Below, one piece after another: positions 264 through 21,064 of a stretch of DNA of 24,000 nucleotides. Position numbers and translations under genes: made by a program. This DNA is from Synechococcus sp. PCC 6312 (GTDB taxonomy: Bacteria > Cyanobacteriota > Cyanobacteriia > Thermosynechococcales > Thermosynechococcaceae): the NCBI RefSeq assembly GCF_000316685.1, contig NC_019680.1, positions 2,837,407-2,861,406 on the forward strand. Reading direction: 5' to 3'. The stretch's first letter is position 1. Every line of letters starts with the position of its first letter. Below the pieces are notes generated by a model. The model searched no databases. It had not been told where the DNA came from and saw only the letters and a list, made by a program, of their open reading frames with translations.

Positions 264-500
264 TTACCCTTGCTTGACATGGCCTGGTTTCCAGCATTCG
301 CCTTCTGTGACGCAGTATTTTTGTCCTTCGGATTCTATCCAGATCAGGTCATTTTTGACTTTTGTAATTTCTCCGGTAACTATCTTTGTTCCGGTGATTT
401 TGTGCCAACCGTCTTTTACTGATTCGCTTGGAACTTCTGCTGATACGATTTCGCCAACTTCCATATTTTTTCCTTTAACTCCACTCTGGCTGAAAGACAT
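264..500 (-). CDS. Small hypothetical protein (78 aa; 66 aa if started at the ATG at 464)
   Basis: ORF track. The internal ATG at 464 is preceded by AAAGGA (SD-like) at about 7 nt; the ATG at 500 has no SD. No family recognised. Confidence 0.6.
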   Translation of the reverse strand: MSFSQSGVKGKNMEVGEIVSAEVPSESVKDGWHKITGTKIVTGEITKVKNDLIWIESEGQKYCVTEGECWKPGHVKQG

Positions 501-2144: not shown

Positions 2145-2195
2145 TCTTCTTGTTTTGCTATAACAACACTTTTTCTGAAGGACTTTTTTATTTTG

Positions 2196-2672: not shown

Positions 2673-2737
2673 TATTTTTATCCTTTAGCGACACTATTCC
2701 GCAGGACATTTTGATTTCCTTGACCTGGGAAGGGGAC

Positions 2738-3106
2738 TTAGACCCGCACAACCCGAACTGGCTTGCCAGCCGCCTGAGCCTCGCTGACCATATTGGCTGT
2801 GCCACGGCTCACGCCGTCCCAGAACACAACGGCTGCGTCACACGCCTGAGCCATGCTCCGGTTCCGAACCGGCCCAGCCGAGCGACCGAAAGCAGCCCAC
2901 TCAGCCGGGAACCGCTCAACCGCAAAACCACGCTCTTGAGCGTAACGCTCGCCAAGTGCATCTGCGCCACGACAGGCACCGGAAAGCACAACCACCTCAA
3001 AGCCCTGAGCCAACTTGTTGGCAAGCAAGGCATCGAGCCGCTCACAGAGCAAACCAAAATCACTGAACTGCCGAGAGCCAGCGATAACGACACGAAAGGG
3101 AGCCAT
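2738..3106 (-). CDS. SLOG-superfamily / DUF2493-like Rossmann-fold protein (122 aa)
   Basis: VVIAGSRQF…VVLSGACRGADALGERYAQE…PAEW…GRSAGPVRNRSMA…AVVFWDGVSRGT resembles the DUF2493/YspA-type SLOG pattern recalled from plasmid and phage proteins. Strong SD GGAGG upstream. Confidence 0.8.
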   Translation of the reverse strand: MAPFRVVIAGSRQFSDFGLLCERLDALLANKLAQGFEVVVLSGACRGADALGERYAQERGFAVERFPAEWAAFGRSAGPVRNRSMAQACDAAVVFWDGVSRGTANMVSEAQAAGKPVRVVRV

Positions 3107-3139: not shown

Positions 3140-3660
3140 TTGACGACCCCCGGAACGCCGTTACCAAAACTTACCGCTCCCCGACCGACCCTGGAGGGAG
3201 GGGCTGAAGGTGCTTGCACCGTAAGGAAAGCGGCTAGTTTTGGTTACGGGGCAGTGCCATGCACTGAGGCTTTACGCCTTGAAGTGGGGTCGTATCCTGG
3301 AGGCTGCTGAGGTTCCCCTCCTGGGAGGGGTTAGGGGTGGGAGCGTGAACGGAGGTGAACACCACTTCACGGGGGTGCGGGGGGGCCTCCCCGCTATAGG
3401 AAAGGGGGTTTGGGGGAACGGAACGGGCCCCCAATGGGTGGGGTGCCGGGGCTGCGGCGATAAGGCTTTTGGTTTGTGAGAGAGGTTTATTCCGCAGGGG
3501 CGGCATTTGAGAGGGTTTGGGATAGGTTGCACTGGCCTGGGAAAGGCGGCCGGAAACGGCGACAGATTTTGATTTGGTGGGTAATGTTTATTCCGTTTCC
3601 GGCCGCCCGTTAATCTTGGCGTAGTCTGATAGGGGAACGGTACGGTGAGGTTTTGTAATT
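3140..3660. repeat. Structured repeat block C: M1 (3140-3295) + unique G-rich hairpins + M2b (3396-3436) + M3 long form (3436-3506) + M4 (3545-3607)
   Basis: M1 outer helix ACGACCCC (3142-3149) / GGGGTCGT (3285-3292). M4 is a 15-bp perfect inverted repeat, GGCGGCCGGAAACGG (3545-3559) / CCGTTTCCGGCCGCC (3593-3607). The segment 3436-3672 is about 95% identical to 4346-4583. Confidence 0.85.
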
Positions 3661-3663
3661 CAC

Positions 3664-3688
3664 AAAAAAAAGCCAGCCGAAGCTGGCC
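3664..3688 (-). terminator. Intrinsic terminator (minus strand) of the 3695-3985 gene
   Basis: GCCAGC-CGAA-GCTGGC hairpin with a preceding A8 on plus (U8 after the hairpin on minus). Confidence 0.8.
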
Positions 3689-3694
3689 TATTCG

Positions 3695-3985
3695 TTACCG
3701 TTGTTGCTGCTGTTCTACTTTTTGATTTTCTTGAATATTTTCTGTAATTGCCACAAAACCGCAGCTAATTGTTAGAACTAGAACTGGCCAAACCATTTTT
3801 TCTACTGTTTTGGCGTAGCTGTATCGCCTAGCCTTAAAATTTTTGCCCATTTCTACTTTTAATCTAACTTTTCTAAATTTACGATCTAATTCATTCCATT
3901 CTTTAACTAGACCGTTCCAACTGAAATCAAATACTTTAACGGTACGTTTGCCGTTTTTATCGTCACGAATCATTGCTTTACGCAT
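3695..3985 (-). CDS. Small hypothetical protein with a C-terminal TM segment (96 aa)
   Basis: ORF track. Hydrophobic stretch MVWPVLVLTISCGFVAI. Flanked by M1 upstream and a terminator downstream. Confidence 0.7.
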   Translation of the reverse strand: MRKAMIRDDKNGKRTVKVFDFSWNGLVKEWNELDRKFRKVRLKVEMGKNFKARRYSYAKTVEKMVWPVLVLTISCGFVAITENIQENQKVEQQQQR

Positions 3986-4002
3986 TGTAATTTACCAACA
4001 CA

Positions 4003-4575
4003 ACGGCGCTTGGATAGCACAGCACGGAACCGTCCTAGATTTTCTTATCGCTCCCCGACCCTTGGGAGGGGCTGACGTTGCTTGCAACGGAAGGAAAGCG
4101 ATTAGAAAATGTTGGTCGGCACTGCCCTAGCAGTGAGGGAGGGTGAGCCTCGAACCCGACCTTGAAGGCTGTGCTACCTTGCAAAAGCCTGTGTCGGGGG
4201 GGCAGGGGGAAGTCACCCCCTTAGCACAACTGGAGCAGCCCCTTGGGGGGCGAATAGCGAGGGGGGAGAAAAGCCCGTCCGTTAGCGTTAGCGTGCCGTA
4301 AGGCAATTAGGACGATTCAGTTCTGACACTGTGGGCAGTGGCAGCGGGTGGGGTGCCGGGGCTGCGGCGATAAGGCTTGTGGTTTGCGAGAGATGTTTAT
4401 TCCGCAGGGGCGGCATTTGAGAGGGTTTGGGATAGGTTGCACTGGCCTGGGAAAGGCGGCCGGAAACGGCGACAGATTTTGATTTAGCGGGTAATGTTTA
4501 TTCCGTTTCCGGCCGCCCGTTAATCTTGGCGTAGTCTGGCACGGGAATGGGACGTTGTGAGGTTTTGCAACTCAC
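4003..4575. repeat. Structured repeat block D: M1 (4003-4185) + M2 (4190-4322) + M3 long form (4346-4417) + M4 (4455-4517)
   Basis: M1 outer helix TAGCACAGC (4015-4023) / GCTGTGCTA (4168-4176). M1+M2 are near-identical to block E except for a swapped apical hairpin. M3+M4 are near-identical to block C. Confidence 0.85.
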
Positions 4576-4603
4576 AAAAAAAAGACCGGCCTTTCGGCCA
4601 GTC
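4576..4603 (-). terminator. Intrinsic terminator (minus strand) of the 4612-4773 ORF
   Basis: GACCGGCC-TTTC-GGCCAGTC hairpin (one mismatch) preceded on plus by A8. Confidence 0.75.
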
Positions 4604-5391: not shown

Positions 5392-5409
5392 ACAAACAAC
5401 CAAAACACT

Positions 5410-5745
5410 ACGGCGCTTGGATAGCACAGCACGGAACCGTCCTAGATTTTCTTAGCGGCTGGCTTGCCAGACGGTTAGAAAATGTTGGTCGGCACTGCCC
5501 TAGCAGTGAGGGAGGGTGAGCCTCGAACCCGACCTTGAAGGCTGTGCTACCTTGCAAAAGCCCGTGTCGGGGGGGCAGGGGGAAGTCACCCCCTTAGCAC
5601 AACTGGAGCAGCCCCTTGGGGGGCGAATAGCGAGGGGGGGAAAAAGCCCGTCCGATTAGGACGGTTCATTGGGGGGGGTTGGGGGGGGAACGCCCCCCTA
5701 ATCTGGTATGCAGAACAAAGTGACGCTACCAGATTAGGTCTGAAA
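5410..5745. repeat. Structured repeat block E: M1 (5410-5560) + M2 (5565-5668) + G/C homopolymer hairpin + 12-bp inverted repeat (about 5698-5740)
   Basis: Outer helix 5422-5430 / 5541-5549. The apical hairpin is replaced by GGCTGG-CTTG-CCAGAC. The inverted repeat is CCTAATCTGGTA…TACCAGATTAGG (12 bp perfect). Confidence 0.85.
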
Positions 5746-5827: not shown

Positions 5828-6733
5828 TCAGGCTGATTTCGGCATATCAGATTCTTGGATATATGGCATAACTTCGTGTAGGACTTCTTTCATAAGTTCA
5901 GACTCACGGAGGCTTCCGCAGATACCGCTATAGAGGTTTGGCTTCCATCCATTAAGTTCATCGCAGTAGATCATGGTGTTGCAATGAAGTTTGGCCATCA
6001 TGATCATATTTCTACGGATCATGGCCTTAATGGCCCACTTAATCTTGAGGTCATCTTTGAGGTGCAGTTGACTGACTGGACCGGACTTGCCAGGGAGGTT
6101 ACGAAGTTTGGATTCAATGCGGTAGTATGTCCATTTTTGGGTATTGTACTTGCGGATATTGGCATACTTAGGAGCGATCCATTCCTTTTTGAAGGACTGA
6201 ATGAGGGTCTTAATTTCGGGTTGGCTCCAGACTTTGATCGGCTTTGCCGACTTATGGATAACGAGCTTATCGCCTGTTAGCCATTCCGACTCGGTTTGGG
6301 TGACGATTTCTACGAAGGACTTGAGTTCGTTGTGAGAGAACTTGTAAGTATAGACTTCACGCCCACTCCAGTTTTCTTTCTGGCTTTTATTGCTGCTTTT
6401 TACATGGTCAGCAACGATTAGTGTTTTCTGGGCCAACTCCCATGCTTTTTTTAGGGTTTCGACTCGTTCCTCCCAGGTTTCGATCACGTTCAGAACATAG
6501 GTCATGGTTACAATATCGGCGGGTTCGAGTGGGGTGGGGAAGTAGTAGGGGTCATAGCATTTTGACTTAAAGCCAAGTTCATTCAGCCATTCGGTGTCTT
6601 TTCCATACCCGCAGCCAAAATCCAGGTGCGACTGGCTTGGGTGGATCATCATGTTTTTGATCATCAATCTGACGGTACTTGAAGGATGCTTTCGCTTTGG
6701 AGCAGACTTATGGCGATTAGACTTGATTAGCAT
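5828..6733 (-). CDS. Class I SAM-dependent methyltransferase, N-terminal domain, with an uncharacterised C-terminal half (301 aa)
   Basis: Motif I LDFGCGYGKD followed by an acidic-loop-like …CYDPY…. The substrate (DNA, RNA or small molecule) cannot be told from the sequence. Confidence 0.8.
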   Translation of the reverse strand: MLIKSNRHKSAPKRKHPSSTVRLMIKNMMIHPSQSHLDFGCGYGKDTEWLNELGFKSKCYDPYYFPTPLEPADIVTMTYVLNVIETWEERVETLKKAWELAQKTLIVADHVKSSNKSQKENWSGREVYTYKFSHNELKSFVEIVTQTESEWLTGDKLVIHKSAKPIKVWSQPEIKTLIQSFKKEWIAPKYANIRKYNTQKWTYYRIESKLRNLPGKSGPVSQLHLKDDLKIKWAIKAMIRRNMIMMAKLHCNTMIYCDELNGWKPNLYSGICGSLRESELMKEVLHEVMPYIQESDMPKSA

Positions 6734-6813
6734 TTCTCTGACTGGACACTCTGAAAATAGTGTACTTGACTGGTCATGAAAGAATGACTATTCGTTTTTG
6801 ATTGGCCCTAGCA

Positions 6814-6840
6814 TAAAAAAGCCCTGCATTGCTACAGGGC
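6814..6840 (-). terminator. Intrinsic terminator (minus strand)
   Basis: GCCCTG-CATTGCTA-CAGGGC hairpin preceded on plus by A6. Confidence 0.75.
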
Positions 6841-6850
6841 GGAATAGGAC

Positions 6851-7018
6851 TTAATTTGCTGATTGTGGACTTAACTCATCAAATCCGGCAGGACGAACAA
6901 AGTCTTCCTCCTTCTTTAACTCATTCCAGATTTTGACTGGATTAAAGTAGCCATTGGTTTTGATGATGACTGATTTAAGCCCGGTTAGTGTTTTGTAGGT
7001 AAATGCGAATTGCCGCAT
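6851..7018 (-). CDS. Small hypothetical protein (55 aa from ATG 7018; the ORF track extends to 7207 across a terminator)
   Basis: The long ORF reads through the terminator at 7054-7089. The internal start gives MRQFAFTYKTLTGLKSVIIKTNGYFNPVKIWNELKKEEDFVRPAGFDELSPQSAN. Confidence 0.5.
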   Translation of the reverse strand: MRQFAFTYKTLTGLKSVIIKTNGYFNPVKIWNELKKEEDFVRPAGFDELSPQSAN

Positions 7019-7053
7019 GGATGAACCCTCTGAATTTGCCTTCACTGAAAGAC

Positions 7054-7089
7054 AATAGAAAAGCCGAAAGTTTGCACTCTCGGCTTTTC
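7054..7089 (-). terminator. Intrinsic terminator (minus strand) + junction-motif variant
   Basis: 10-bp stem GAAAAGCCGA / TCGGCTTTTC, followed on minus by TATTGTCTTTCAG. Confidence 0.65.
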
Positions 7090-7098
7090 TGGGTTGGG

Positions 7099-7347
7099 TT
7101 AGAAGCGTTTTCCAATCTGGTTTAAGATAACTCTTTCGTGGTGATCGAGTGGTCTTGTATAGGCATGGATAATAGCTTTGAGCAGACGTAGCATGATGGG
7201 AACACATTGATTGACAGTGAACCTTTTTGAGCTTTTTATTGCTTTTTTTAGATTCGATTTAGCCAGAAGGTTTAGCACCCTTTTTACACTTTTTTTAATT
7301 TTTAGCTTGCTTGATAATTCCGTTCTTCTTTGAATTGGGAGGCCCAT
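7099..7347 (-). CDS. Small basic hypothetical protein (82 aa, start uncertain)
   Basis: ORF track. Overlaps the end of the 7302-7550 ORF by 46 nt and is followed directly by a terminator. Lys-rich N-terminal half. Confidence 0.4.
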   Translation of the reverse strand: MGLPIQRRTELSSKLKIKKSVKRVLNLLAKSNLKKAIKSSKRFTVNQCVPIMLRLLKAIIHAYTRPLDHHERVILNQIGKRF

Positions 7348-7484
7348 CTATAGAAGTCTTGGTAGGTCAAATATAGAGCCTTTCTTGAGTCTTGGTCAAA
7401 GAGGATAATTTCGACCTCTTTTTCATTGATTTGGTAGCTCTCAATGATTCCGCTTCTGAGTAGCCATTCTAGTTTTGCTTGCAT
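7302..7484 (-). CDS. Small hypothetical protein (60 aa from ATG 7484; the ORF track extends to 7550)
   Basis: AAGGA SD 5-6 nt upstream of ATG 7484. No SD before 7550. Confidence 0.55.
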   Translation of the reverse strand: MQAKLEWLLRSGIIESYQINEKEVEIILFDQDSRKALYLTYQDFYRWASQFKEERNYQAS

Positions 7485-7568
7485 GGTTTTCCTTGGTGTT
7501 TCTGTAACGTTTTCTAGGGGAGGTTTGTAAATGCAAAGTTTTCCGGGCATAAGAGAACTTTACATTTT

Positions 7569-7982
7569 TTACAGCGGTATCTGGTATCTCCGTTCAGGAT
7601 TCTTTTGTGAATGTGCCTTGTGACCATGACTCCGAGGTTGGAAGCCCATTTTTGTCATGATCAGTTTCCAGTTTCTGTCATGTCCAATTCTTTTTTTTGG
7701 CCATAGGCGACAGCAAATGGTATGGGCTAATTCATGGGCATAGACTTGGGGCAGTTCTGACGGGTTTTCGGAGAGTAGGGGTAGATTTAATTCAATTTTG
7801 TCTTTACTGGCTCTCCCGGCTGTTGTTTTAAGGCGAGTATTGTATTTAACGGTAATGGGTTTTTCGGTGATCATGGCGATTATTTTGGCTGAGAATTGAC
7901 GCTTCAGTTTTTCCATGATGCCTTGGTGAATTGTCCGGATTCTTACCTTAGTTTTCTGGTCAATTCCAACAAATATTAGCAT
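7569..7982 (-). CDS. SprT-like zinc metallopeptidase domain protein (137 aa)
   Basis: N-terminal …NTRLKTTAGRAS…IELN… and the HExxH motif YAHELAHTIC match the SprT-like family pattern. AAGGAG SD upstream. Confidence 0.8.
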   Translation of the reverse strand: MLIFVGIDQKTKVRIRTIHQGIMEKLKRQFSAKIIAMITEKPITVKYNTRLKTTAGRASKDKIELNLPLLSENPSELPQVYAHELAHTICCRLWPKKRIGHDRNWKLIMTKMGFQPRSHGHKAHSQKNPERRYQIPL

Positions 7983-7996
7983 TTTTGGCTCCTTTA

Positions 7997-8020
7997 ATAA
8001 AAAAGCCTCTGATAGAGGCT
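7997..8020 (-). terminator. Intrinsic terminator (minus strand)
   Basis: AGCCTCT-GAT-AGAGGCT hairpin preceded on plus by an A-run. Confidence 0.75.
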
Positions 8021-8036
8021 CTGTGTGGTGAGATTT

Positions 8037-8207
8037 TTAAGCTAGGGCAGACTTAAGCCAAATGCACAGTTGTCGGTCGTTTGCAGTTCGTTGAGCAACC
8101 GGAACACGGCTAATGCGGATGTAGATGGTTGCCAATTCGCTGGCCAACTTACCGAGCGAGGGCTTTTTTGATAGGAGTAGCTGAGTCAGTTGTTGATGTT
8201 GGTTCAT
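8037..8207 (-). CDS. Candidate 56-aa hypothetical protein (below the ORF-track cutoff)
   Basis: Hand translation: MNQHQQLTQLLLSKKPSLGKLASELATIYIRISRVPVAQRTANDRQLCIWLKSALA*. A terminator follows. No clear SD. Confidence 0.35.
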   Translation of the reverse strand: MNQHQQLTQLLLSKKPSLGKLASELATIYIRISRVPVAQRTANDRQLCIWLKSALA

Positions 8208-8224
8208 AGATTTTTATGGAATAG

Positions 8225-8694
8225 ACATCCTAGCCGAAGGACAATAAAAAACTCTGGGTGTTAGCCAGAGCTTGGTTTTGGTTAGGAACCTCATCGCAGC
8301 CTATCCGAAGGTTAACCAAAAACCCCCACCATTTCTGATGAGGGCTTTTGATTGTCCATAACCTTGCCTGTAAGCACCTCATCCGAAGGAAAAGAAAAAA
8401 CCCTCATTATTCAATGAGGGAATCTTCCGTGTGTAGAGTTTGGTTTTATGACATCCTAGCCGAAGGACAATAAAAAAACCTCACCATTTCTGGCGAGGCT
8501 GGCCACCAAATGTATTCAGTTGTTGCACGACATTTTGTTACAACACAGTTTTTTTCTCCCTTCGATACAGCATTTGCACCAATCGCACTGAATTATTTTT
8601 GATACACCCCCACCGAAGGACAATAAAAAACCCCCATCGTTTGATGGAGGATTTTGTGTAGAGTTCTGGTTTTCTTCACCCGTTACCGCAGGAC
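8225..8694 (-). repeat. Tandem array of five to six ORF-less 'hairpin + T-run + ATTGTCCTTCGG' junction units
   Basis: On the plus strand, CCGAAGGAC (or CCGAAGGTT / CCGAAGGAA / CCGCAGGAC) occurs at 8234, 8305, 8383, 8460, 8613 and 8686. Each of the first five is followed by AATAAAAAA and a different hairpin (for example CCCTCATT-ATTC-AATGAGGG at 8401-8420). Confidence 0.8.
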
Positions 8695-8808
8695 ATGATT
8701 ATTTTTTACCCTTTTTTATACATTTCACCTGAGACTCCTGATCCGTTTGGAAGCCCTGTCTCTTCAGAACAGGGAGGAAAAACGAACAGCGACTTTAGTC
8801 GCCTACAT

Positions 8809-10086
8809 TTAGAAGACATAGGCATAACCGTCTTTTTTGTGCATGGCTTTGCAGTATTTGTGGCTGATACCTGCCACTCTTCCAGTTGCCGTGGCTATGT
8901 CAAAACTGCCAGAGGCTCGACAAAGAACCCGACCCACATAGAAGCCGATTTTCTTGCCTGCCGTAACGGTCGCTCTGACAATATCGCCAGTTTGAAAGCC
9001 TTTATGAATCTGTACTCTGGACTTATGGCGAGTCGAAAAACCAAACTTGTCAGTCCCACACATCTGCCGTGTGCCGTGACCTTTGGCGGTAATGAGCAAC
9101 GGCTTTGAAGTCAGGACTTTGAGCGCATCAACCTGACCCACACAAGCGGCATCCAACCAATGAGCTTTGGGCAGGTCTAAGCGGGTGCGGTTGAATTTAG
9201 TTTGTCCACCCGTCCCTGTCGTGAGTGGCAACCCCGTCGCTTTCAGTGCATTGAATAACGCCCATCGGGTAGAGTTGACTGCTGCTGCATCCTTGAGAGG
9301 GGCTTTAGCCTTTCTCAGAATCCGTTGTAGTAACTCAGGCTTACCGAATAGGAAGTCTCGAATGTCCTGATTTCCCTTGCTTTGGTTACAGGCATGACAA
9401 GCCATTGTGAGGTTAGAAACTCGGTCAGTTCCGCCTCTCGACCTGGGGTGAATATGCTCTACTTCTAAAGGGACATCTTTAGTTCCACAGTAAGTACATT
9501 TTCTGCCCCACTTTTCTAGTAGATACTCTCTGACTTCGTAGCCTTGTAATTCCCCTTGTTGGTACTCAATGCCTGAGATTTCAGGATTTTGTAACTTCTG
9601 TAGGTCAAACCGTACCAACTCTTGAGCGATACTGCCAAGGGGAGCTAGATTTCTGAGCCGATTTACCCAGGTCAGCACCGTATCAACTCGATGTTTCAGG
9701 CTAGGAGCAAGCCAACCATCAGGGCGATTACGATTTAGAAAACGGGGCTGACGATAACGGGTTTTCCGATTTCGCCTCCCACGCCGTAATTGACGACGAG
9801 ACAGCAAGGCATCTTTAATCTGTTGCCCCCGGTGCTGCAATTCGGCTCCAAAGATGATTTTGTTGCCTTGTTTAATTGCAATTCCAGTAACTTTAGAACC
9901 GGGGTCTAATTTGAGTTCTAAGTCTTGCACGGGGACATCAGGATGAGCTTCTTTCAAGATGAGGGTAAATGGAAAACGACGATATACTGCCGCTTTTCCT
10001 TGGTTGAGTAGATGACGAGCCTTCCCAGGATGAACGGGATCAAGCGGTCGTTTTTGGGTATCGAGAACAAAGATAAAATTGGACAT
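8809..10086 (-). CDS. iscB: IscB RNA-guided nuclease (OMEGA system; RuvC-HNH-RuvC with an N-terminal PLMP domain), 425 aa
   Basis: PLMP-type N-terminus VLDTQKRPLDPVHPGKARHLL. RuvC-I LKLDPGSKVTGIAI. Arg-rich bridge helix RRQLRRGRRNRKTRYRQPRFLNR. HNH CTYCG…EVEHIHPRSRGG…CHACNQSKGN. RuvC-III HWLDAACVG. ATG at 10086 with a GGAG SD; the track's GTG at 10155 lies in the omega-RNA region. Confidence 0.93.
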   Translation of the reverse strand: MSNFIFVLDTQKRPLDPVHPGKARHLLNQGKAAVYRRFPFTLILKEAHPDVPVQDLELKLDPGSKVTGIAIKQGNKIIFGAELQHRGQQIKDALLSRRQLRRGRRNRKTRYRQPRFLNRNRPDGWLAPSLKHRVDTVLTWVNRLRNLAPLGSIAQELVRFDLQKLQNPEISGIEYQQGELQGYEVREYLLEKWGRKCTYCGTKDVPLEVEHIHPRSRGGTDRVSNLTMACHACNQSKGNQDIRDFLFGKPELLQRILRKAKAPLKDAAAVNSTRWALFNALKATGLPLTTGTGGQTKFNRTRLDLPKAHWLDAACVGQVDALKVLTSKPLLITAKGHGTRQMCGTDKFGFSTRHKSRVQIHKGFQTGDIVRATVTAGKKIGFYVGRVLCRASGSFDIATATGRVAGISHKYCKAMHKKDGYAYVF

Positions 10087-10340
10087 TGAAAGTCTCCGTA
10101 AAACGGGTAATGTGTTCCTCGCCAATGTTTTTAAGGCTTGTTTGGCTAACGACACTGCTTTACCCCTCGTAAGGCTGTTTAATCGCTAACGACAGAGCTA
10201 CAAACTGGAAAGCATTTGTAGGTGTCATGACCTTAAAAACGTAGTCAGTCAAGACTTAGGCTGGTCAACTAACTGAAGCTAGAGGCATGAAGCCCCATTA
10301 CTTCAGTGCGGGGTGCTGACTCAGACTGAAAGACCGTAGC
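10087..10340 (-). ncRNA. Putative omega-RNA (HEARO-type) scaffold of the IscB element; 5' end and guide not resolved
   Basis: Position only. IscB omega-RNAs are encoded directly 5' of, and overlapping, the iscB start. The region is ORF-poor with local hairpins (for example CTTCAGT…ACTGAAG at about 10272-10310). I could not verify the consensus structure by eye. Confidence 0.55.
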
Positions 10341-10422
10341 TCTACGCCTTTTCCCAGGTAAAGTAGTAGCCATTTTCTTCAATGATTTTTAATATTTCTG
10401 ACTGTTTCATTTGGGTTACTCC

Positions 10423-10578
10423 TTAGCGATTGATTTCTTTCCAGGCTTGTTCTGCTTCTTTTTTGGTTTTGTAGAAACCGTAAAAGCAACTGCATACCAG
10501 GAAGCACCATTTCCCAATGTCTTTATGGGTTAGGCTGGCAAAGCGTTCTACATCGGCTTGGGTCAGTTGGAATATCAT
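10423..10578 (-). CDS. Candidate 51-aa hypothetical protein (below the ORF-track cutoff)
   Basis: Hand translation: MIFQLTQADVERFASLTHKDIGKWCFLVCSCFYGFYKTKKEAEQAWKEINR*. The junction motif CCGAAGGAC (10606) lies upstream. An AAGGAG follows its stop, ahead of a further 22-codon ORF (10342-10410). Confidence 0.4.
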   Translation of the reverse strand: MIFQLTQADVERFASLTHKDIGKWCFLVCSCFYGFYKTKKEAEQAWKEINR

Positions 10579-10625
10579 TTTATTTTTGGGTTTTAGAGCA
10601 TTTTTCCGAAGGACTTTTTGGGTTT

Positions 10626-10658
10626 TGTTCTAGGGGTGAGAGTGCTACCCCTAGAACA
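10626..10658. repeat. Perfect 12-bp-arm palindrome TGTTCTAGGGGT-N9-ACCCCTAGAACA
   Basis: Read directly from the sequence. Lies between the 10423-10578 and 10665-10997 ORFs. Confidence 0.9.
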
Positions 10659-10664
10659 GTTTGG

Positions 10665-10997
10665 TTAACTGGTGTAACGTTCAAATTCTTCAGCAATATC
10701 TTCAGCTTCTAGCTGAGATTCAATGATCTGGACTTTTTTGTTTGTGATCAGGACGTACATTCCGAGAGAGTCTTGGGGCAGTTTCAGCACTTCGATGACA
10801 TTGTGGGTGATCTGGCCAATCCAGTAGTAGTTGTCTGATTTTTCCCAGATTTGTGACAGGAAGTGTTTTTCGGCTTCATCTGGGTTGTCGAAGATGTTGG
10901 TTATCACTCCCTCGATCAGTGTTAGCCATTGCCCCTGGATTTCAGGATGGGTGCTTCTGGGGGAGGCTTGGCAGATTCCGGTATAGTTTTTGTCCAT
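10665..10997 (-). CDS. Hypothetical protein (110 aa)
   Basis: ORF track. AAGGA SD upstream. Bracketed by the two GTTCTAGGGGT palindromes. Confidence 0.75.
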   Translation of the reverse strand: MDKNYTGICQASPRSTHPEIQGQWLTLIEGVITNIFDNPDEAEKHFLSQIWEKSDNYYWIGQITHNVIEVLKLPQDSLGMYVLITNKKVQIIESQLEAEDIAEEFERYTS

Positions 10998-11040
10998 TTT
11001 TTGTTCCTTACGACTGCCAATCCGAAGGACTTTTAGTTGT

Positions 11041-11074
11041 TTGTTCTAGGGGTGGGCCATTACCCCTAGAACAA
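11041..11074. repeat. Perfect 13-bp-arm palindrome TTGTTCTAGGGGT-N8-ACCCCTAGAACAA
   Basis: Read directly from the sequence. Followed on the plus strand by CTTTTTT. Confidence 0.9.
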
Positions 11075-11086
11075 CTTTTTTATGGG

Positions 11087-11686
11087 TCAGCGGTTCATTC
11101 TACGGAAGTCCCAAGGTTTTATCTGGTCTGACTTCCAGACACCAACGCCTTCTTTTCGGGCTTCTTGTTCGGCTTGATCAACTTTGGCAAAACTAGGGCA
11201 GTTATTAGCGAACTTGCGGTAAGCGTAGGCCATGCCTTTGCGGGTCATGGTTTCTTGGACAAGGGTATTGCCCGTCCAGACTTCAGCGACCTTACGGCCA
11301 TAGCGGTCAGTGTTGGTAATGCGAAGGTCAACACGGTAGTCAGCTTTTTTTAAGATATTGCGGAGTGTATTACGGGATGCTTCGCCCAAGGGTTGTTTAA
11401 GTTCTGGTGCGTCAATACAGGCGAAGCGGACTCGGATTTCTTCGTTGCCATTGGTGGCTCGGATGGTATCGCCATCATGGATAGAGCGTTGAACAACTTG
11501 CCATTCGGTTAGTCCAGTTCTGGTTTGGGTGGGTGTTCCGATTTCGTTGACAACGGCTTCACGTTCGGATGGACTAATCATACGTCCACTAGTTGTTCTT
11601 GGATTGAGGGCTTCAATCTCGGACATTGGGACAGCTTGCGATACGCATCCGGTTAGGAAAATTGCTAGGAGTGGCCAATAACGCAT
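11087..11686 (-). CDS. Secreted thermonuclease (staphylococcal nuclease/SNc fold) lipoprotein, 199 aa
   Basis: Lipobox LTGC in MRYWPLLAIFLTGCVSQ. SNase core …DGDTIRA…IRVRFACIDAPE…GEAS…RYGRKVAEVW…. Confidence 0.88.
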   Translation of the reverse strand: MRYWPLLAIFLTGCVSQAVPMSEIEALNPRTTSGRMISPSEREAVVNEIGTPTQTRTGLTEWQVVQRSIHDGDTIRATNGNEEIRVRFACIDAPELKQPLGEASRNTLRNILKKADYRVDLRITNTDRYGRKVAEVWTGNTLVQETMTRKGMAYAYRKFANNCPSFAKVDQAEQEARKEGVGVWKSDQIKPWDFRRMNR

Positions 11687-11784
11687 TTTATAATTGATGA
11701 GCTAATTATAAATGAACTTTAGCATGGTCTTGACTTTCTGAAAAATTGCTGTATAGGGTTGCCGCAGAGTTTTGAGATTTATTT

Positions 11785-12450
11785 ATGCAGCGACTGATGG
11801 TAGCTCTGTTAGCGGTCATGGCCATGGCCATGACCGCTGGCGAAGTATTTGCAAATCCGTTCAAGATTCCCAATTCTACGGGTGATCGGGTAACGTTTCG
11901 GATGGATGGTTTAACGCCTGGTTCTGAGATTCAGGTCGGTGCCGGGGATACGAAAGCGAAACTTACCGCTTATACGATCAACAACTACGGGCGGATTAGT
12001 CCCCCGGCTGGTGCGACCAAGGTACGGAAATGGGGCGATACAACTTGGATCAACCTATCCAGTGCGACCGATCTGACTGATTCGGTCAAGGTTGCAACCG
12101 TTCAAGGTCAGCGTCAGTTTGCGCCTAAAGTGGCGGGTCAAAACTTACCGACTATCCCTTCCTTTATCAAACTTGGTACGGCGTTTTACTGGAATCCTGG
12201 CACTACGCTTCCAACTGATGGAATCTTCATTGAGTTTGATGTTCCGGTACAGCGTGTTGCGAAAGTTAATGCGTGTGGCCAGCTTTCAATCTCGGTTAGT
12301 TCGGTGAACGGCAGTGTCAATTACGTTCCTGCTGTGACGGTAAACGGAACAAGTTATACGATTGCAAGCCTTCCGGTCGGAAATCCGGCTAACTTATCTC
12401 GTTGCGTCAAGTACGGCGAGTCCACTTACGTCCGGTACGTTCCGCAGTAG
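11785..12450 (+). CDS. Secreted protein, paralog 1 of a four-member tandem family (221 aa)
   Basis: Signal peptide MQRLMVALLAVMAMAMTAGEVFA|NP. Family motifs NACGQLS…C.KYGESTYVRYVPQ. Confidence 0.85.
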   Translation: MQRLMVALLAVMAMAMTAGEVFANPFKIPNSTGDRVTFRMDGLTPGSEIQVGAGDTKAKLTAYTINNYGRISPPAGATKVRKWGDTTWINLSSATDLTDSVKVATVQGQRQFAPKVAGQNLPTIPSFIKLGTAFYWNPGTTLPTDGIFIEFDVPVQRVAKVNACGQLSISVSSVNGSVNYVPAVTVNGTSYTIASLPVGNPANLSRCVKYGESTYVRYVPQ

Positions 12451-12458
12451 AGGTACTG

Positions 12459-13076
12459 ATGTTAAGACCTGTCCTATTGGCTTTGTTTTGGTTGTTGGGT
12501 GCGTTGCCTGTGGTAGCGAATCCGGTACGAGTGCCGAGTGCCAGTGGTAACTCGATGCGCGTCAGTTTTGAAGGCTTCAATCCAAACAGTGAGGTACAGG
12601 TCGGCGTTGGCCTACGGCGATACCGAGCATCGCTGTCTATTAAACAGGGTGGGATGTCTTTTTTCCGGTTCACGTCACCTGAAGGAGCGACAGCGGTTCG
12701 TGTGGTTGGCCAAGAGAACTGGACGGCCCTGAGCCTTATTTCAGATCAGACCGCAAACTTGCGGGTCACTGGTACTGGTGAACAGCGTCAGTTTCTGGCG
12801 AAGAATCCGAAGGATTTTTGGTCAACCTTTGTTCCTTCTTTCAACGGGTATATGAAGGTGGGTCGGTCTTTCTTTTATCGGGGCAATGGAGACTCAATCA
12901 TGTTTGAGTTCAATGTCCAGGCTTACCGATTAGCAAAGGCGGATGCGTGTGGGCGAATTTCGCTGCTCTATCCGGTATCGGGTTCACGGGCCATCTCATC
13001 GGTCACGGTTGGCCAAACCTTTTACAGGCTTGACAGCGTTCCGACTGCCAGCAGATTGCCTGAATGTTCTCAATAG
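12459..13076 (+). CDS. Secreted protein, paralog 2 (205 aa from ATG 12459)
   Basis: GAGG SD precedes ATG 12459. Signal peptide MLRPVLLALFWLLGALPVVA|NP. DACGRIS…PECSQ. The track start at 12402 overlaps paralog 1. Confidence 0.8.
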   Translation: MLRPVLLALFWLLGALPVVANPVRVPSASGNSMRVSFEGFNPNSEVQVGVGLRRYRASLSIKQGGMSFFRFTSPEGATAVRVVGQENWTALSLISDQTANLRVTGTGEQRQFLAKNPKDFWSTFVPSFNGYMKVGRSFFYRGNGDSIMFEFNVQAYRLAKADACGRISLLYPVSGSRAISSVTVGQTFYRLDSVPTASRLPECSQ

Positions 13077-13095
13077 TTTTTCTTAGGAGTTGATG

Positions 13096-13824
13096 ATGTT
13101 TAATCGTATTTTTGTCCTTACTGCATTGCTCAGTCTTTTACCGACTGCGGTTTTTGCGGCTCCGACTAAGTTTACGAATCCTACAACCAACCGTGCCGAG
13201 GTAAATATCACTGGTTTTACGGCTGGTCAGGAAGTACCTATCGAATTTCAGAGTGTGACTAAATCGGTAAAAGCGAGTTGCCTGATTGGGTCGGATCGGT
13301 ATGCCTTGGTTTCCAGCGATGTTGCGGCCGAGATTAACCAGCCCTTTGAAGCCTTTGCTACTGCGGGTGGTACCCCTGCCATCAAAGTGAATGGTGGTGA
13401 GAATATTTGGGGTTCTGAGGAAGGTATGACCAATGGCCGTTGTGCCTTTGTTAACGGTACTCGCGTGTTCGTTGCCCCCAACGCACAGGGACAGGCTGTA
13501 CCTGTGACTGGAAACTACGGCCCTTTATTTGTTACCTCAACGGTGAATGCTGAAGGTAATGTAACGGGTAAGAGTTCCCTTTGGGTACGCGTTCCTACCT
13601 GGGATGCAGTACCAGTCCAAATCGTTGGTGGGAATACACAGAAGAAATACAAGGCGAATAGCTGTGGCATCGTCCGGTTTGCAGAAACTGAGACTGCTCC
13701 TTTAGCTCCTACCTTCAAAGTTGGTTCTACCATTTACACCGTTGCTAACTTAAGCACTGCTTACCCGCCCAAGTGCTATAAGACTGGCGAGACTTCTTAC
13801 ACTTTGTTTGTTCCGGCTCAGTAA
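13096..13824 (+). CDS. Secreted protein, paralog 3 (about 242 aa; start at 13093 or 13096)
   Basis: AGGAG SD at 13085-13089. Signal peptide MFNRIFVLTALLSLLPTAVFA|AP. C-terminus NSCGIVRFAETE…PPKCYKTGETSYTLFVPAQ. Confidence 0.88.
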   Translation: MFNRIFVLTALLSLLPTAVFAAPTKFTNPTTNRAEVNITGFTAGQEVPIEFQSVTKSVKASCLIGSDRYALVSSDVAAEINQPFEAFATAGGTPAIKVNGGENIWGSEEGMTNGRCAFVNGTRVFVAPNAQGQAVPVTGNYGPLFVTSTVNAEGNVTGKSSLWVRVPTWDAVPVQIVGGNTQKKYKANSCGIVRFAETETAPLAPTFKVGSTIYTVANLSTAYPPKCYKTGETSYTLFVPAQ

Positions 13825-13840
13825 TAGTTGTGATCTCACT

Positions 13841-13866
13841 GCGGCCTAGCTATAGGCCGCTTTTTT
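13841..13866 (+). terminator. Intrinsic terminator (plus strand)
   Basis: GCGGCCTA-GCTA-TAGGCCGC followed by T6. Confidence 0.85.
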
Positions 13867-13880
13867 GTGTAGGTGAACCT

Positions 13881-14627
13881 ATGCTTAAGACTCTATCCCT
13901 TTCACTTTTCTGGGTTTTTCTTCCATTGGTGGCATTAGCCCAACCGACTAAGTTTATGAATCCCACGACTAATCGGTCTGAGGTGAATATTACTGGATTC
14001 AGTCCAGGGCAGGAAGTGACTGTTGAGCTTCAGGGCGTAACCAAGACGGTTCGTGGTTCTTGTTCGGTTGGCAGTGACATTTACGCTTTACTTTCTAGCG
14101 ATGGGATTGGTGAGTTTCAGGAGCCTTTTAATGCCTATCTTGCGGCTACTGGCAATCAACCGGAGATTCGTCGTGGTGGTGTGAACCTTGGCAATCTGCT
14201 TGATGTTGAACCTATTTATAACGGTCGGTGTTCCTTTGTGAATGGGGCCAGGGTTTTGATGGGTGTTTATGGAACTGAGCGGATGACTGTTATTCCTCAG
14301 TCACAGATCAATGGTGTTGATCTACTGATGTTTACACCTGTTGACCAGAATGATAATCCGGTTCCTGGTAGTAAGCGGCAGCTTTGGGTTCGTGTACCGA
14401 ATTGGGAGCTAACTCCGATTCAAATTGTTGGTGGTTTTCTGGAGCGGAAGTACAAGGCGAATAACTGTGGCATTGTCCGATTTGCTGAAACAGCTACATC
14501 ACCTTTGCCTGAGACATTCAAGCTTGCTTCTACGGTGTATCAGGTTTCCAACTTATCCACTGCTTACCCGCCCAAGTGCTATAAGACGGGCGAGACTTCT
14601 TACACCCTGTTTGTTCCTGCTAACTGA
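13881..14627 (+). CDS. Secreted protein, paralog 4 (248 aa from ATG 13881)
   Basis: Signal peptide MLKTLSLSLFWVFLPLVALA|QP. The N- and C-terminal thirds are near-identical to paralog 3 and the centre is divergent. The track start at 13830 spans the terminator. Confidence 0.88.
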   Translation: MLKTLSLSLFWVFLPLVALAQPTKFMNPTTNRSEVNITGFSPGQEVTVELQGVTKTVRGSCSVGSDIYALLSSDGIGEFQEPFNAYLAATGNQPEIRRGGVNLGNLLDVEPIYNGRCSFVNGARVLMGVYGTERMTVIPQSQINGVDLLMFTPVDQNDNPVPGSKRQLWVRVPNWELTPIQIVGGFLERKYKANNCGIVRFAETATSPLPETFKLASTVYQVSNLSTAYPPKCYKTGETSYTLFVPAN

Positions 14628-15411: not shown

Positions 15412-15452
15412 TTGGCTTCCACGTTATTTACGCTGCCGCCAAAGGACTGCTT

Positions 15453-15665: not shown

Positions 15666-15728
15666 CAATAAATCTCGAAGTGACTGATTATATAGTATTC
15701 CTTTTTCGATTGATTGGACTGTTCTATT

Positions 15729-15760
15729 GGGTGGGGTGCCGGGGCTTAAAAAGGGGCGGC
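15729..15760. repeat. Isolated M3-type repeat far from the left-hand array
   Basis: GGGTGGGGTGCCGGGGCTTAAAAAGGGGCGGC shares the 16-nt 5' core with all M3 copies. Confidence 0.75.
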
Positions 15761-16279: not shown

Positions 16280-16338
16280 GGATTTTTATCCTACTTTTTG
16301 GGGTTGTTATCCCGTAGGACTTTTGTTTGATCTGTTGT

Positions 16339-17583
16339 TTATAGTGCTTCTTCAGCCGGTCGCAGTTGAGCATCTGGGTTCAGTTGATTTTCACCAGTGG
16401 TAAGGATTTTGATTTGCTCTAAGTTTTTACGCATAGCGGCCCAGGCTTTGAAGGCATTGCTGGTGTATTGGTCGGCTTGGTTGACACGGCTGAGGTATTG
16501 ATCAGTTGACCCTGCGCCGTAGCGATAGGTAACTTCGTAGAGCTTGAGCCGTGTTTGCTCACGGCGAGCGAGTTCCTGGGTTGCTTGAAACTCTCGTTTG
16601 AACTGGTCGAAAGCAAGAACATCGAGCGTCACCTTATCTCGGATACGACCGGCCAGTTCTGCTCGGTTGCGTTGCAGTTCAGCGACTTTGATTTGGAGGT
16701 CGCCAATGGCGAGGCTGCGGGTAGCAGCGGCTTGTGAGCCACCAAATAAGTTAGTGATGAGTGGGATACCGATGAGGCTGAGAGCTTCCGCAATCCCTGT
16801 GCCGGTAAACAGACGGCCAATCTTATCGAAGGGCGATTCAGCGGTTGGCCCTGATGTGGTGACGGTTGTTTGTCGTCCGGTGAATGGGTCGGTGACGACC
16901 TGGGTGGTACCGAGTCTGGCACTTGGCCCAGCATCAAAGCTGAGATAACTCTGAAGTGCAGGGGTAAAGACCTCTAAGTTAACGAGCTTCTGGTTATTGC
17001 TCTGTGCTTCTTGGATGCGAGTATTGGCTTCTTCAATCCGGGCATCTACTTCCTTCAGGATTGGAGAGCGAGCAATCGCTAACTCTTGCAGCCGCTTTAC
17101 ACATTCCTGGGTACTGTCCAGGCAAGGAAGGCCGCCGAGTATGCCCTGCCATAGGTCGTTATTGAACTGAAACCGAAGCACTTCCTCCATGCTGGCAGCG
17201 GTTTGTCCGCCCTGAAATGGATTTTCAGGCAGTCGTGGCGCAGCGACTGGCGTTCTGGCTGGTATGGTTCCGCCACTTGGCATGGTTGTTGTACTTGGCC
17301 TCACACCACTTGGGACGGGAATGTTAACCGGCCGTGTGCTTGGTTGGGCTGGTCTGGTTGTTGACCCTGGACTGGTTGGGGTGGGGGGTGGGGATTCTGG
17401 CTCATCAAGGGTGGGTGGTGCGACTTCGCCACCACCGCCATCATCATCGGTTGTGATGACTGCTGGTTCTTCAGCTTCAGCGGGTTGGCTATTGGGCTGT
17501 GCCTTGGATGTCAAGGGTAAGCTCAACACGAATGTTAGTATCAGACTGCTCAAGCCAACGGATACGAGTGACTTTACCTGCAT
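16339..17583 (-). CDS. Secreted TolC/OEP-like coiled-coil protein with a Pro/Thr-rich linker (414 aa from ATG 17583)
   Basis: Signal peptide MQVKSLVSVGLSSLILTFVLSLPLTSKA|QP. Two OEP-like helical repeats (…ARSPILKEVDARIEEANTRIQEAQ… and …GAGSTDQYLSRVNQADQYTSNAFKAW…). The family assignment is by eye and tentative. Confidence 0.7.
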   Translation of the reverse strand: MQVKSLVSVGLSSLILTFVLSLPLTSKAQPNSQPAEAEEPAVITTDDDGGGGEVAPPTLDEPESPPPTPTSPGSTTRPAQPSTRPVNIPVPSGVRPSTTTMPSGGTIPARTPVAAPRLPENPFQGGQTAASMEEVLRFQFNNDLWQGILGGLPCLDSTQECVKRLQELAIARSPILKEVDARIEEANTRIQEAQSNNQKLVNLEVFTPALQSYLSFDAGPSARLGTTQVVTDPFTGRQTTVTTSGPTAESPFDKIGRLFTGTGIAEALSLIGIPLITNLFGGSQAAATRSLAIGDLQIKVAELQRNRAELAGRIRDKVTLDVLAFDQFKREFQATQELARREQTRLKLYEVTYRYGAGSTDQYLSRVNQADQYTSNAFKAWAAMRKNLEQIKILTTGENQLNPDAQLRPAEEAL

Positions 17584-18439: not shown

Positions 18440-18442
18440 GGT

Positions 18443-19570: not shown

Positions 19571-19572
19571 GG

Positions 19573-20610: not shown

Positions 20611-20837
20611 GACTCTGGTTCCATCTCCACGCAGATTAAGGTGGTGTAGCCTTCGTTTTTTCCATCAAACGACACAATGCCTTGGCCAGACATTTGCTCT
20701 ATGAGGGCATTCATCACGCCTTCGGCCACTGCCATTCGGTTTTTGAGGGGATCAGACGAGCCAACGGTGACAGTGAGTTTGACCGTTTCTACCGTTTCGA
20801 TGGTCGTTCCGGGTTTGTATTTGAGCATGAGGGTCAT
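20607..20837 (-). CDS. Small hypothetical protein (76 aa)
   Basis: ORF track. 4-nt overlaps with both neighbours. Confidence 0.65.
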   Translation of the reverse strand: MTLMLKYKPGTTIETVETVKLTVTVGSSDPLKNRMAVAEGVMNALIEQMSGQGIVSFDGKNEGYTTLICVEMEPES

Positions 20838-21061
20838 AGCACTTCTCCTAGATTCATGTCCCGGTAGGACTTATCGACAATCTTGGCGTTCCAGTTTTTG
20901 GTCTTGGCTTCTAGTTCTATCTCCCAAACTTTGAGGTAGGGGCGCGACAGCAGGGGCGCATTACCGCGTATTCGATAATATTTTTCAAGCAGTGTTTTGG
21001 TCAGTAGTTGTTTGTAAGACTCTGGTAGGTTGCTTCCTTGGCAGAACAGCACTGTTTCCAT
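20834..21061 (-). CDS. Small hypothetical protein (75 aa)
   Basis: ORF track. 4-nt overlap with the downstream gene. Confidence 0.65.
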   Translation of the reverse strand: METVLFCQGSNLPESYKQLLTKTLLEKYYRIRGNAPLLSRPYLKVWEIELEAKTKNWNAKIVDKSYRDMNLGEVL

Positions 21062-21064
21062 GAT

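Follow-up and report, generated by a model that had tools for sequence, protein, structure and literature searches.

Tandem hairpin units without open reading frames as candidate copies of a leader-plus-terminator module in Synechococcus sp. PCC 6312

What is a run of hairpins that holds no gene, and what does the short motif repeated at its junctions do? The run in question lies at 8225-8694 of a 24,000 nt stretch of the Synechococcus sp. PCC 6312 chromosome (NC_019680.1, positions 2,837,407 to 2,861,406; the whole stretch is hereafter the window, numbered from its first letter), next to an insertion that carries an IscB gene. A reading made from the letters alone (the sequence-only reading) had described units of hairpin, T-run and conserved motif that contain no open reading frame (ORF), and had suggested that they are a stack of empty cassette junctions at which the motif could serve as a promoter, a processing signal or a crossover point. 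Here, we find that the run is genuine and statistically solid, and that it is best described as ORF-less copies of the leader-plus-terminator expression module of the plasmid-like island in which it lies.

The minus strand, which is the gene strand here, carries five units at 8243-8694, none with a credible ORF. They lie between the IscB element and a 56-amino acid (aa) ORF, and a sixth copy of the motif leads into that ORF (Table 1). Each ORF-less unit starts with GTCCTTCGG or a variant that differs at one or two bases. The body that follows is 30-40 nt long, or 110 nt in unit 2, and leads into a G+C-rich hairpin and then five to seven Ts, usually with ATT after them. The exact 12-mer ATTGTCCTTCGG is found on this strand at 8234-8245, 8460-8471 and 8613-8624, and when up to two mismatches were allowed the window contained 11 matches where 1.9 are expected, a number reached in none of 100 shuffles. 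An independent repeat finder returned a 46 nt family of five copies (at 8218, 8289, 8367, 8444 and 8597) that are spaced by 71, 78, 77 and 153 nt and are 63-76% identical to the reference copy. Thus, the ORF-less run proposed by the sequence-only reading is borne out. Tandem Repeats Finder did not detect the array, because the identity between copies is too low.

The same reading held that the hairpins all differ while the trailing motif is conserved. The second part stands, but the hairpins of units 1, 3 and 4 (CCTCCATC, CCCTCATT and CCCTCATC) are alike, with CC(C)TC(C)AT in common, and those of units 2 and 4 share CAGAAATGGTG. Aligned, the units have 58% column identity, their bodies being the least conserved portion, and the conserved block exceeds the 12-mer and reaches TTGTCCTTCGGnTAGGnTG. 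As the hairpins are partly homologous and conservation extends beyond the 12-mer, we conclude that the run is a diverged tandem duplication of one ~75 nt unit. Unit 3 is a mosaic of the unit-6 leader and a unit-1-like body, and AACTCTACACA is common to the bodies of units 1 and 3. In the long unit 2, the motif-complementary CGAAGG lies within GAAGGGAG, which resembles a Shine-Dalgarno (SD) sequence and is followed by frames of only 2-5 codons, as expected of a gutted cassette.

Table 1. Array units, motif copies and IscB insertion in the window. Terminators are as predicted; plus signs count nucleotides from the first G of the motif to the ATG.
Feature	Position	Strand	Details
Unit 1	8622-8694	-	motif variant GTCCTGCGG at 8686-8694; body 35 nt; terminator hairpin 8631-8650 (-11.7 kcal/mol, one G.U pair); T6 + ATT
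Unit 2 (long, 153 nt)	8469-8621	-	motif GTCCTTCGG at 8613-8621; terminator hairpin 8477-8500; T-run
Unit 3	8392-8468	-	motif GTCCTTCGG at 8460-8468 plus CTAGGATG; terminator hairpin 8401-8420; T6
Unit 4	8314-8391	-	motif variant TTCCTTCGG at 8383-8391; terminator hairpin 8322-8345; T5
Unit 5	8243-8313	-	degenerate motif AACCTTCGG, core CCTTCGG at 8305-8311; terminator hairpin 8250-8272; T6 + ATT
Unit 6, ORF-bearing	8002-8242	-	motif GTCCTTCGG at 8234-8242; 56-aa ORF 8037-8207, ATG at +36; terminator hairpin 8002-8022
Motif copy, exact	11022-11030	-	after 13-bp-stem hairpin 11041-11074; ATG of 110-aa ORF at +34; SD AAGGA can pair with UCCUU
Motif copy, exact	10606-10614	-	after homologous hairpin 10625-10659 (repeat-finder family D19); ATG of 51-aa ORF at +37; no SD
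Motif variant GTCTTTCAG	10326-10334	-	starts 7 nt after stop of 22-codon ORF (10342-10410); ends 5 nt before omegaRNA scaffold
Motif variant GTCTTTCAG	7045-7053	-	after terminator 7057-7090; ATG of 55-aa ORF (6851-7018) at +36
Motif variant GTCCTGCGG	2699-2707	-	30 nt after stop of 122-aa ORF; SD AGGAU; ATG at +36
Motif variant GTCCTTCAG	2175-2183	-	ATG of 106-aa ORF at +40
Motif variant GTCCTACGG	16312-16320	-	18 nt after stop of TolC-like gene; ATG of 119-aa ORF at +42
Motif variant GTCCTTTGG	15439-15447	-	5 nt after upstream stop; ATG of 83-aa ORF at +37
Motif variant GTCTTTCAG	490-498	-	SD AAAGGA; ATG at +35
IscB insertion	8725-10320	-	HEARO/omegaRNA 10107-10320; IscB ORF 8809-10155 (or 10086); 3' end with two hairpins

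A scan of the minus strand for a hairpin with a T-run returned 8650-8631, 8500-8477, 8420-8401, 8273-8249 and 8022-8002, that is, four of the five array hairpins and the terminator of the 56-aa ORF. The one not flagged, in unit 4 (8345-8322), has 10 pairs, three of them G.U, and folds at -14.9 kcal/mol. As minus-strand RNA, the five array hairpins have folding energies of -9.4 to -15.4 kcal/mol and run into T5-T7, while the complementary strand folds at -5.1 to -9.9 kcal/mol, 0-9.8 kcal/mol weaker. Their stems are 7-10 bp long with loops of 4-7 nt, 7 of the 42 pairs are G.U, and single-sided and double changes keep every stem position paired across the units. G+C-rich stem-loops followed by a T-run have the form of intrinsic (Rho-independent) terminators, and the wobble pairs favour the gene strand. 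That the hairpins pair better as minus-strand RNA argues that they are real terminators for that strand, and on these folds, which agree with the sequence-only reading on this point, we regard them as bona fide, if predicted, Rho-independent terminators.

The motif is not confined to the array. In its relaxed form, GTCYTNCRG, it occurs 14 times in the window against 2.95 expected, with 12 of the 14 on the minus strand, and the GTCTTTCAG variant alone occurs three times against 0.22 expected. Identical variants form subfamilies (GTCTTTCAG three times, GTCCTGCGG twice and the T-run type three times). The copies that the sequence-only reading had listed were recovered with 0-2 mismatches at 2175, 2699 (which it had placed at 2696), 7045, 10606, 11022, 15439 and 16312, but its position 1409 shares only the T-run plus ATTGTC and lacks the CCTTCGG core. 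Two copies, at 490-498 and 10326-10334, were not on its list.

Outside the ORF-less array, the motif stands at a nearly constant distance from a start codon. For all eight copies tested (named by their first G: 11030, 10614, 8242, 7053, 2707, 2183, 16320 and 15447), an ATG with at least 30 open codons lies at +34 to +42; the chance of such an ATG is 5.3% per site, giving P ~6e-11 for eight out of eight. The copy at 490-498 is a ninth such case. Among matches with up to two mismatches, such an ATG lies at +30 to +45 in 14/43 on the minus strand versus 3/36 on the plus strand. Five of the eight also have an SD-like GG at 8-11 nt ahead of the ATG, and in an anchored alignment its position tracks the ATG rather than the motif. 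The alignment also shows that an A/T-rich tract always precedes the motif, and the motif core is kept where the flanks have fully diverged. Between copies 15447, 16320 and 2707 and the stop codons 5, 18 and 30 nt upstream of them there is no terminator. The sequence-only reading is supported in that the array units lack ORFs but repeat the junction or leader found ahead of small ORFs in other parts of the island.

One further exact copy of GTCCTTCGG, on the plus strand at 323-331, follows ATTTTT inside a minus-strand ORF and has no ATG 34-42 nt downstream; it is either a chance occurrence (~0.09 expected) or an antisense copy. Directly upstream of the two A-run-type copies, at 11041-11074 and 10625-10659, stands a recurrent palindrome with a 13 bp stem (TTGTTCTAGGGGT...ACCCCTAGAACAA), half copies of which were seen at 981-1015 and ~160-175. 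With its T-run on the plus strand, the palindrome could serve as a binding site or as a terminator in both directions.

The fixed distance to the ATG, the SD-like GGs and the intercistronic copies that no terminator precedes place the motif in transcribed leader or intercistronic RNA, as transcription from a -35 box here would begin no earlier than the SD. Judged from this sequence context, the motif is most likely part of a transcribed leader and not a -35 box. Our preferred reading, to which we give somewhat less than even confidence, is that the accessory part of the integrated element consists of small expression modules, that the ORF-less array is made of duplicated modules and that the motif is an anti-SD-like leader. 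A module would comprise the 9 nt motif GTCYTNCRG, usually after an A- or T-run, a leader of ~25-33 nt and a small ORF, in many cases with a Rho-independent terminator after it. In the stretch from IscB to the 56-aa ORF, the module would have been duplicated in tandem without its ORF, leaving five units of leader motif, short body and terminator. The motif would be transcribed and act in RNA, with its anti-SD-like UCCUU or UCUUU half folding onto an AGGA that lies immediately downstream (array units and 7053) or at the ribosome-binding site (11030, 2707, 16320 and 498). The small leader stem-loop so formed may limit translation initiation or, once read-through or processing has taken place, protect the 5' end. 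The ORF-less units could have arisen when the conserved junctions recombined unequally or the DNA between them was deleted, and today they would yield at most leader-plus-terminator RNAs of 65-75 nt.

Minimum-free-energy folds are consistent with such a stem, as the motif pairs with AGGA or the SD in units 2, 3 and 6 and in copies 7053, 11030, 2707 and 16320. The partner is AGGAU just downstream in units 3 and 6, CGAAGGG inside the SD-like GAAGGGAG in unit 2 and GAAGGC in 7053 (as the local hairpin GUCUUU/GAAGGC). In 11030, 2707 and 16320 it is the SD; in the last of these the variant GUCCUAC pairs with GUAGGAU, and the 7 nt complement GTAGGAT covers the SD. At 15447, UUUGGC in the motif region pairs with GCCAAA just 5' of the AUG. 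When downstream sequences were swapped between copies, the motif paired less well than with its own (P = 0.05), which is suggestive only; individually, the pairing at 16320 was equalled in 0/500 shuffles, and P was 0.03 for 2707 and 0.06 for unit 2. In GTCTTTCAG, positions 4 and 8 have changed together so that the TCC/GGA symmetry is kept, a single event that we estimate at ~2% by chance. Ahead of the SprT-like gene, the SD (AAAGGAG) comes immediately after the T-run of the previous terminator (7983-8022), with no space between them for a promoter, which suggests that transcription reads through the terminator into downstream genes, or that a promoter overlaps the hairpin. On these predicted folds, an RNA leader stem is the best available candidate for a mechanism. 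The sequence-only reading had considered a C(UUCG)G-type loop; the closing stem is not extended in any motif copy, and the tetraloop was rejected.

Several points weigh against this proposal. Transcription of the motif is something that we infer, the pairing statistic is borderline overall, with units 1 and 4 and copies 10614, 2183 and 15447 failing it, and the ORFs after 10614, 8242 and 2183 have no clear SD. An anti-SD role leaves the conservation of the CGG half unexplained. The spacing of 34-42 nt would also fit a -35-like element with leaderless mRNAs, for which a semi-conserved (T/C/G)AAAA(C/G) at +21 to +26 could act as a -10. Because no relatives were found, covariation can be tested only among the window's own paralogues. 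Known leader hairpins of anti-SD type (ROSE elements and fourU thermometers) and 5' stabilising stem-loops resemble the proposed structure in that UCCUU is complementary to the downstream AAGGA or AGGAU, and the two could form a hairpin on or beside the ribosome-binding site. However, these are single-gene elements with defined structures, while here a 9 nt motif recurs across ~10 unrelated cassettes with predicted stems of only 4-7 bp and borderline statistics.

That the ORF-less units have diverged by ~40% and still have intact terminators hints at use, beyond a purely vestigial reading. The vestigial reading is that the terminator-leader junction was recently duplicated in place and is now decaying without a function, so that the enrichment of the motif reflects no more than shared ancestry of duplicated leaders. 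The subfamilies of identical variants would fit this, as would an array and motif that are private to the island and for which no relatives were found, but five fully paired hairpins at this level of divergence, a motif core kept amid fully diverged flanks and the strict distance to the ATG make it quite improbable.

One alternative to a leader is that the motif is recognised on double-stranded DNA. It could be the -35 of a non-standard promoter in which the A/T-run serves as an UP element and the mRNAs have a short leader or none. Or it could overlap the start site as an operator for a repressor that the element encodes, and the cassettes would then form one regulon that is derepressed on transfer. 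The fixed distance to the ATG and the A/T-rich tract before every motif are features that a role at the DNA level would explain. Moreover, TCC-N3-GGA is a quasi-palindrome, the altered positions 4 and 8 in GTCTTTCAG are symmetrical within it, TATTGT, a TAnnnT-type -10, overlaps the T-run-type junctions, and proteins with helix-turn-helix domains are encoded in the window (7302-7550 and 22585-22926). Yet the array units contain no canonical -10/-35, a single weak promoter match (8435-8406) was returned for the array by the terminator/promoter scan, and in 6000-12000 promoter-like sites number 5 versus 7.9 in shuffles, so that there is no excess. No TAnnnT is common to all motif copies, which have only TATTGT in the T-run-type junctions, or TAGGAT and similar hexamers at +11. 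No -35 box is found 16-18 nt from the only -10-like hexamer, and the -35 candidates for TATTGT match at 0-4 of 6 positions without consistency, which is not the pattern of a sigma-70-type promoter. TATTGT and AAAAGT were both rejected as a -10, as neither has an accompanying -35 box, and the putative -10 hexamers at +21 lack a conserved final T. With the motif as a -35 box, the SD-like GGs would fall upstream of the predicted start; their positioning by the ATG disfavours such a box with leaderless mRNAs. Nor is the palindrome complete, since only 6 of 13 copies have A at position 10 and none has C at position 11, and no sigma factor was found among the window ORFs scanned. The KorA and KorB operators of the IncP plasmid RK2 are 12-13 bp perfect palindromes with known binding proteins. 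The motif is like them in being a short conserved site that recurs at many transcription units of a mobile element, but it is asymmetrically conserved and no cognate protein was identified. A role at the DNA level is, in our view, unlikely, though it deserves to be kept in mind.

Another rival of the leader reading is a row of tandem small RNA (sRNA) genes. Each unit would then be transcribed independently, from a promoter at or near its motif to its own terminator, and would produce an sRNA of 40-75 nt. There is a precedent in nsiR1 of heterocystous cyanobacteria, which is present in 12 tandem copies near hetF, each with its own promoter and producing a 60 nt RNA (PMC4030482). Like nsiR1, the array is a cyanobacterial set of head-to-tail, short, non-protein-coding units that are diverged paralogous copies. 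Five consecutive intact terminators, the single-sided and double changes that preserve pairing, a unit length of 71-78 nt and the presence of AACTCTACACA in the bodies of units 1 and 3 are all in keeping with sRNA genes. In contrast to nsiR1, however, there is no recognisable promoter in the units, the junction rather than the RNA body is conserved, and the same motif also precedes protein-coding ORFs. The setting differs too, with a unicellular host and a locus within a plasmid-like island. No Rfam family was found in 8200-8700 at the gathering score or at E up to 1. As for targets, antisense matches within the window never exceed 12 nt. We therefore consider sRNA genes an improbable, if serious, explanation.

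A more speculative version of the leader reading gives the array RNAs a role of their own. An RNA-binding or processing factor encoded by the element would act on a UCC-N3-GGA leader stem in every accessory cassette, and the RNAs of the ORF-less array would act as a sponge that titrates the factor, or the ribosome, and so sets the expression of the cassettes, for example after transfer to a new host. If true, this would be a private post-transcriptional system of an integrated plasmid with the motif as its recognition element; we think it very unlikely.

The sequence-only reading had also raised cassette exchange. Here the motif would be the crossover of an integron-like or other site-specific system and the run a stack of empty sites. 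The layout is cassette-like, with small unrelated ORFs that have a common junction, ORF-less units exist, and unit 3 is a mosaic, but homologous recombination between the 20-46 nt junction repeats explains mosaicism equally well. Neither a tyrosine or serine recombinase domain nor an integron integrase (IntI) was found in any ORF scanned in the 24 kb. The conserved core is only 9-12 nt long without inverted binding arms, the motif is also present in plain intercistronic spacers, and no second island was found in which exchange could show. Integron cassette arrays likewise consist of small unrelated ORFs, each followed by a variable imperfect hairpin and a short conserved boundary motif, and empty sites are conceivable in them. 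However, they have an integrase and attI, neither of which is present here, and their attC sites form folds of 57-141 nt with extrahelical bases, while the hairpins here are canonical terminators with short G+C-rich stems, T-runs and G.U pairs. The integron junction is GTTRRRY where ATTGTCC is found here, and the cassettes here carry their own leaders. Neither attC-like core sites (RYYYAAC ... GTTRRRY) nor long imperfect folds were found, the junctions reading hairpin-T6-ATTGTCCTTCGG. In our preferred reading the motif is not a site-specific recombination crossover, and cassette exchange of this kind is highly improbable.

The IscB element itself is of a known type. A HEARO RNA (Rfam RF02033, 161.6 bits at 10107-10320), or omegaRNA, lies upstream of an ORF with an RRXRR (RuvC-like) domain (Pfam, 2.8e-75) and an HNH domain (5.7e-13), the arrangement of an IS200/IS605-IscB element. 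Alignment to a copy in a Halotia plasmid bounds the element at 10320 and ~8725, the 3' boundary being uncertain by ~10 nt. As homology stops at these positions and the array starts at 8694, the array appears to lie outside the IscB element and not to be part of it. The sequence-only reading had placed the insertion exactly at the unit whose motif is at 8686-8694 and which lacks a preceding hairpin. This is not the case: the 3' end of IscB is ~30 nt upstream of that motif and the upstream flank of the element holds the 22-codon ORF instead of a hairpin with a T-run, so there was no insertion between a hairpin and its motif. On the other flank, a GTCTTTCAG copy falls in the presumed omegaRNA guide region (Table 1); the run before insertion would thus have comprised seven motif copies, with IscB landing in the first spacer. 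From these boundaries, IscB seems to interrupt the motif run, having landed beside a motif copy. The presumed guide, the 16 nt before the scaffold (10321-10336), is CGGTCTTTCAGTCTGA and includes GTCTTTCAG, and 10 contiguous bases of this guide (GTCTTTCAGT) recur in the motif copy at 7044-7053.

Together with the adjacent IscB, a resemblance of TATTGTC(C/T) to the nic region of R388 (GTATTGTCT) raised the idea that the units are substrates of an HUH enzyme, with a hairpin and a cleavage site in single-stranded DNA, such as a relaxase nic site, an IS200/IS605-type end or a palindrome-associated transposable element (PATE). HUH substrates generally have this geometry, a hairpin and then a conserved motif in single-stranded DNA, and IscB belongs to the IS200/IS605 world. 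But the hairpins vary, while HUH enzymes read specific hairpins, the G.U pairs (G.T in DNA) and T-runs mark RNA terminators, and the A-run-type copies have no preceding T-run hairpin. With the array outside the IscB element and neither TnpA nor a relaxase encoded in the window, this idea is scarcely credible. Short direct repeats with variable intervening sequence beside an RNA-guided nuclease gene also recall arrays of clustered regularly interspaced short palindromic repeats (CRISPR) or of type III toxin-antitoxin systems (ToxI). Here, however, the repeats lie outside the IscB element, their 46 nt copies are only 63-76% identical, and each unit has its own terminator, with a hairpin formed partly from unit-specific sequence. 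Genes resembling toxN or cas are not present, and a CRISPR array was rejected. The type III toxin-antitoxin, attC and PATE readings were likewise rejected on the features given above.

The right part of the window encodes an AAA ATPase, a YdjM-like hydrolase, a DUF87 ATPase resembling type IV coupling proteins, HlyD-like and TolC-like proteins and then a staphylococcal-nuclease homologue. Most of these backbone genes (16339-22926 and 11087-11686) recur in a similar arrangement on plasmids of Tolypothrix PCC 7910, Microcystis NIES-2481 (p1) and S. elongatus PCC 11801 (p1), the latter two of which carry CyRepA1-family replication genes. The window therefore represents a plasmid-like element that has integrated into the chromosome of Synechococcus sp. 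PCC 6312. In the plasmids that share the backbone the motif is found only at background level, and an apparent match in Microcystis falls within a TnpB 3' region. Four units were used to build a covariance model, which found three of them again and one weak (27-bit) match at 2741-2812 of the Tolypothrix sp. PCC 7910 plasmid. This is a terminator after two copies of CCTACGG, downstream of a hypothetical gene, and though it is the sole hint of the motif in a related plasmid the match is probably driven by the terminator.

Wider searches returned nothing related. The 16- and 17-mers of T-run plus motif gave single unrelated matches in IMG/VR, and again in one genome for each of 185,579 species, where no cyanobacterium was matched and the source genome was not returned. 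In metagenomes, the extended motif ATTGTCCTTCGGNTAGGNTG matched ~8 unrelated sequence families. The only metagenome contigs with multiple hits (L150, L136 and L153) were set aside as coincidental; they are microsatellite-rich, ORF-poor and resemble eukaryotic satellite DNA. In these contigs (at 4860-7480 in L150), a tandem satellite with a period of 147-187 nt contains GTCCTTCGGCTAGGCTGC, is surrounded by ATCT, CT and TA microsatellites and is likely eukaryotic, and its resemblance to unit 5 (CCTTCGGATAGGCTGCGA) is coincidental. The SprT-like protein had no homologue besides itself in 5.8 billion proteins, and exact-protein look-ups of the window proteins returned only short Logan contigs identical to the window. 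In the literature, a string search for the motif matched only primer sequences and other unrelated text, and a search for a PCC 6312 island found nothing. If functional, the leader motif would mark a co-regulated set of ~ten small orphan genes in a plasmid-derived cyanobacterial island, with an SprT-like protease, an orphan methyltransferase and a nuclease as neighbours, and a single 9 nt element would be a handle for switching ~ten genes together. In that case, the ORF-less array would be either a new tandem sRNA locus or a record of how recombination at shared junctions adds and removes cassettes. The finding is of limited practical weight, as the feature is confined to one genome with nothing related in three large collections.

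Other cassette features were seen in the window. A family of G+C-rich non-coding elements of ~250-350 nt has the core AATGCCGCCC...CCCCGGCACCCCACCC and an internal hairpin CCGTCCTAATCGGACGG, with minus-strand copies at ~5395-5735, 3985-4345, 1660-2005, 1160-1420 and 3140-3450. The core is also found at 655-688, 801-834, 1366-1399, 1955-1988, 2226-2255, 4341-4374, 15715-15744 and 1-20. Of five aligned copies, four stand immediately upstream of small gene-strand ORFs, and the elements form a second type of cassette leader, much longer than the first. The fold of one copy has a z-score of -2.3, the family has no Rfam match, and these elements might be structured leaders or the single-strand promoters of a plasmid leading region. 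After the terminators of two small ORFs, a 236 nt direct repeat (3436-3671 and 4346-4581, 91% identity) begins with a T-run and GTGA(A/G)TT(A/G)CAAAACCTCAC, a third junction type that is distinct from the GTCCTTCGG type.

Among the coding regions, four plus-strand ORFs in 11785-14627 had no Pfam or NCBIfam match. The adjacent pair at 13090-13824 and 13830-14627 are paralogues, with DNA repeats of 258 and 107 nt at 73-74% identity. The 122-aa ORF at 2738-3106 on the minus strand also lacks a Pfam or NCBIfam match but by eye resembles a small nucleotide-binding protein of DprA/SLOG type (VVLSGACRGAD...PVRNR). This putative SLOG-like ORF, the SprT-like gene, the orphan methyltransferase and the nuclease together resemble the gene content of plasmid leading regions.

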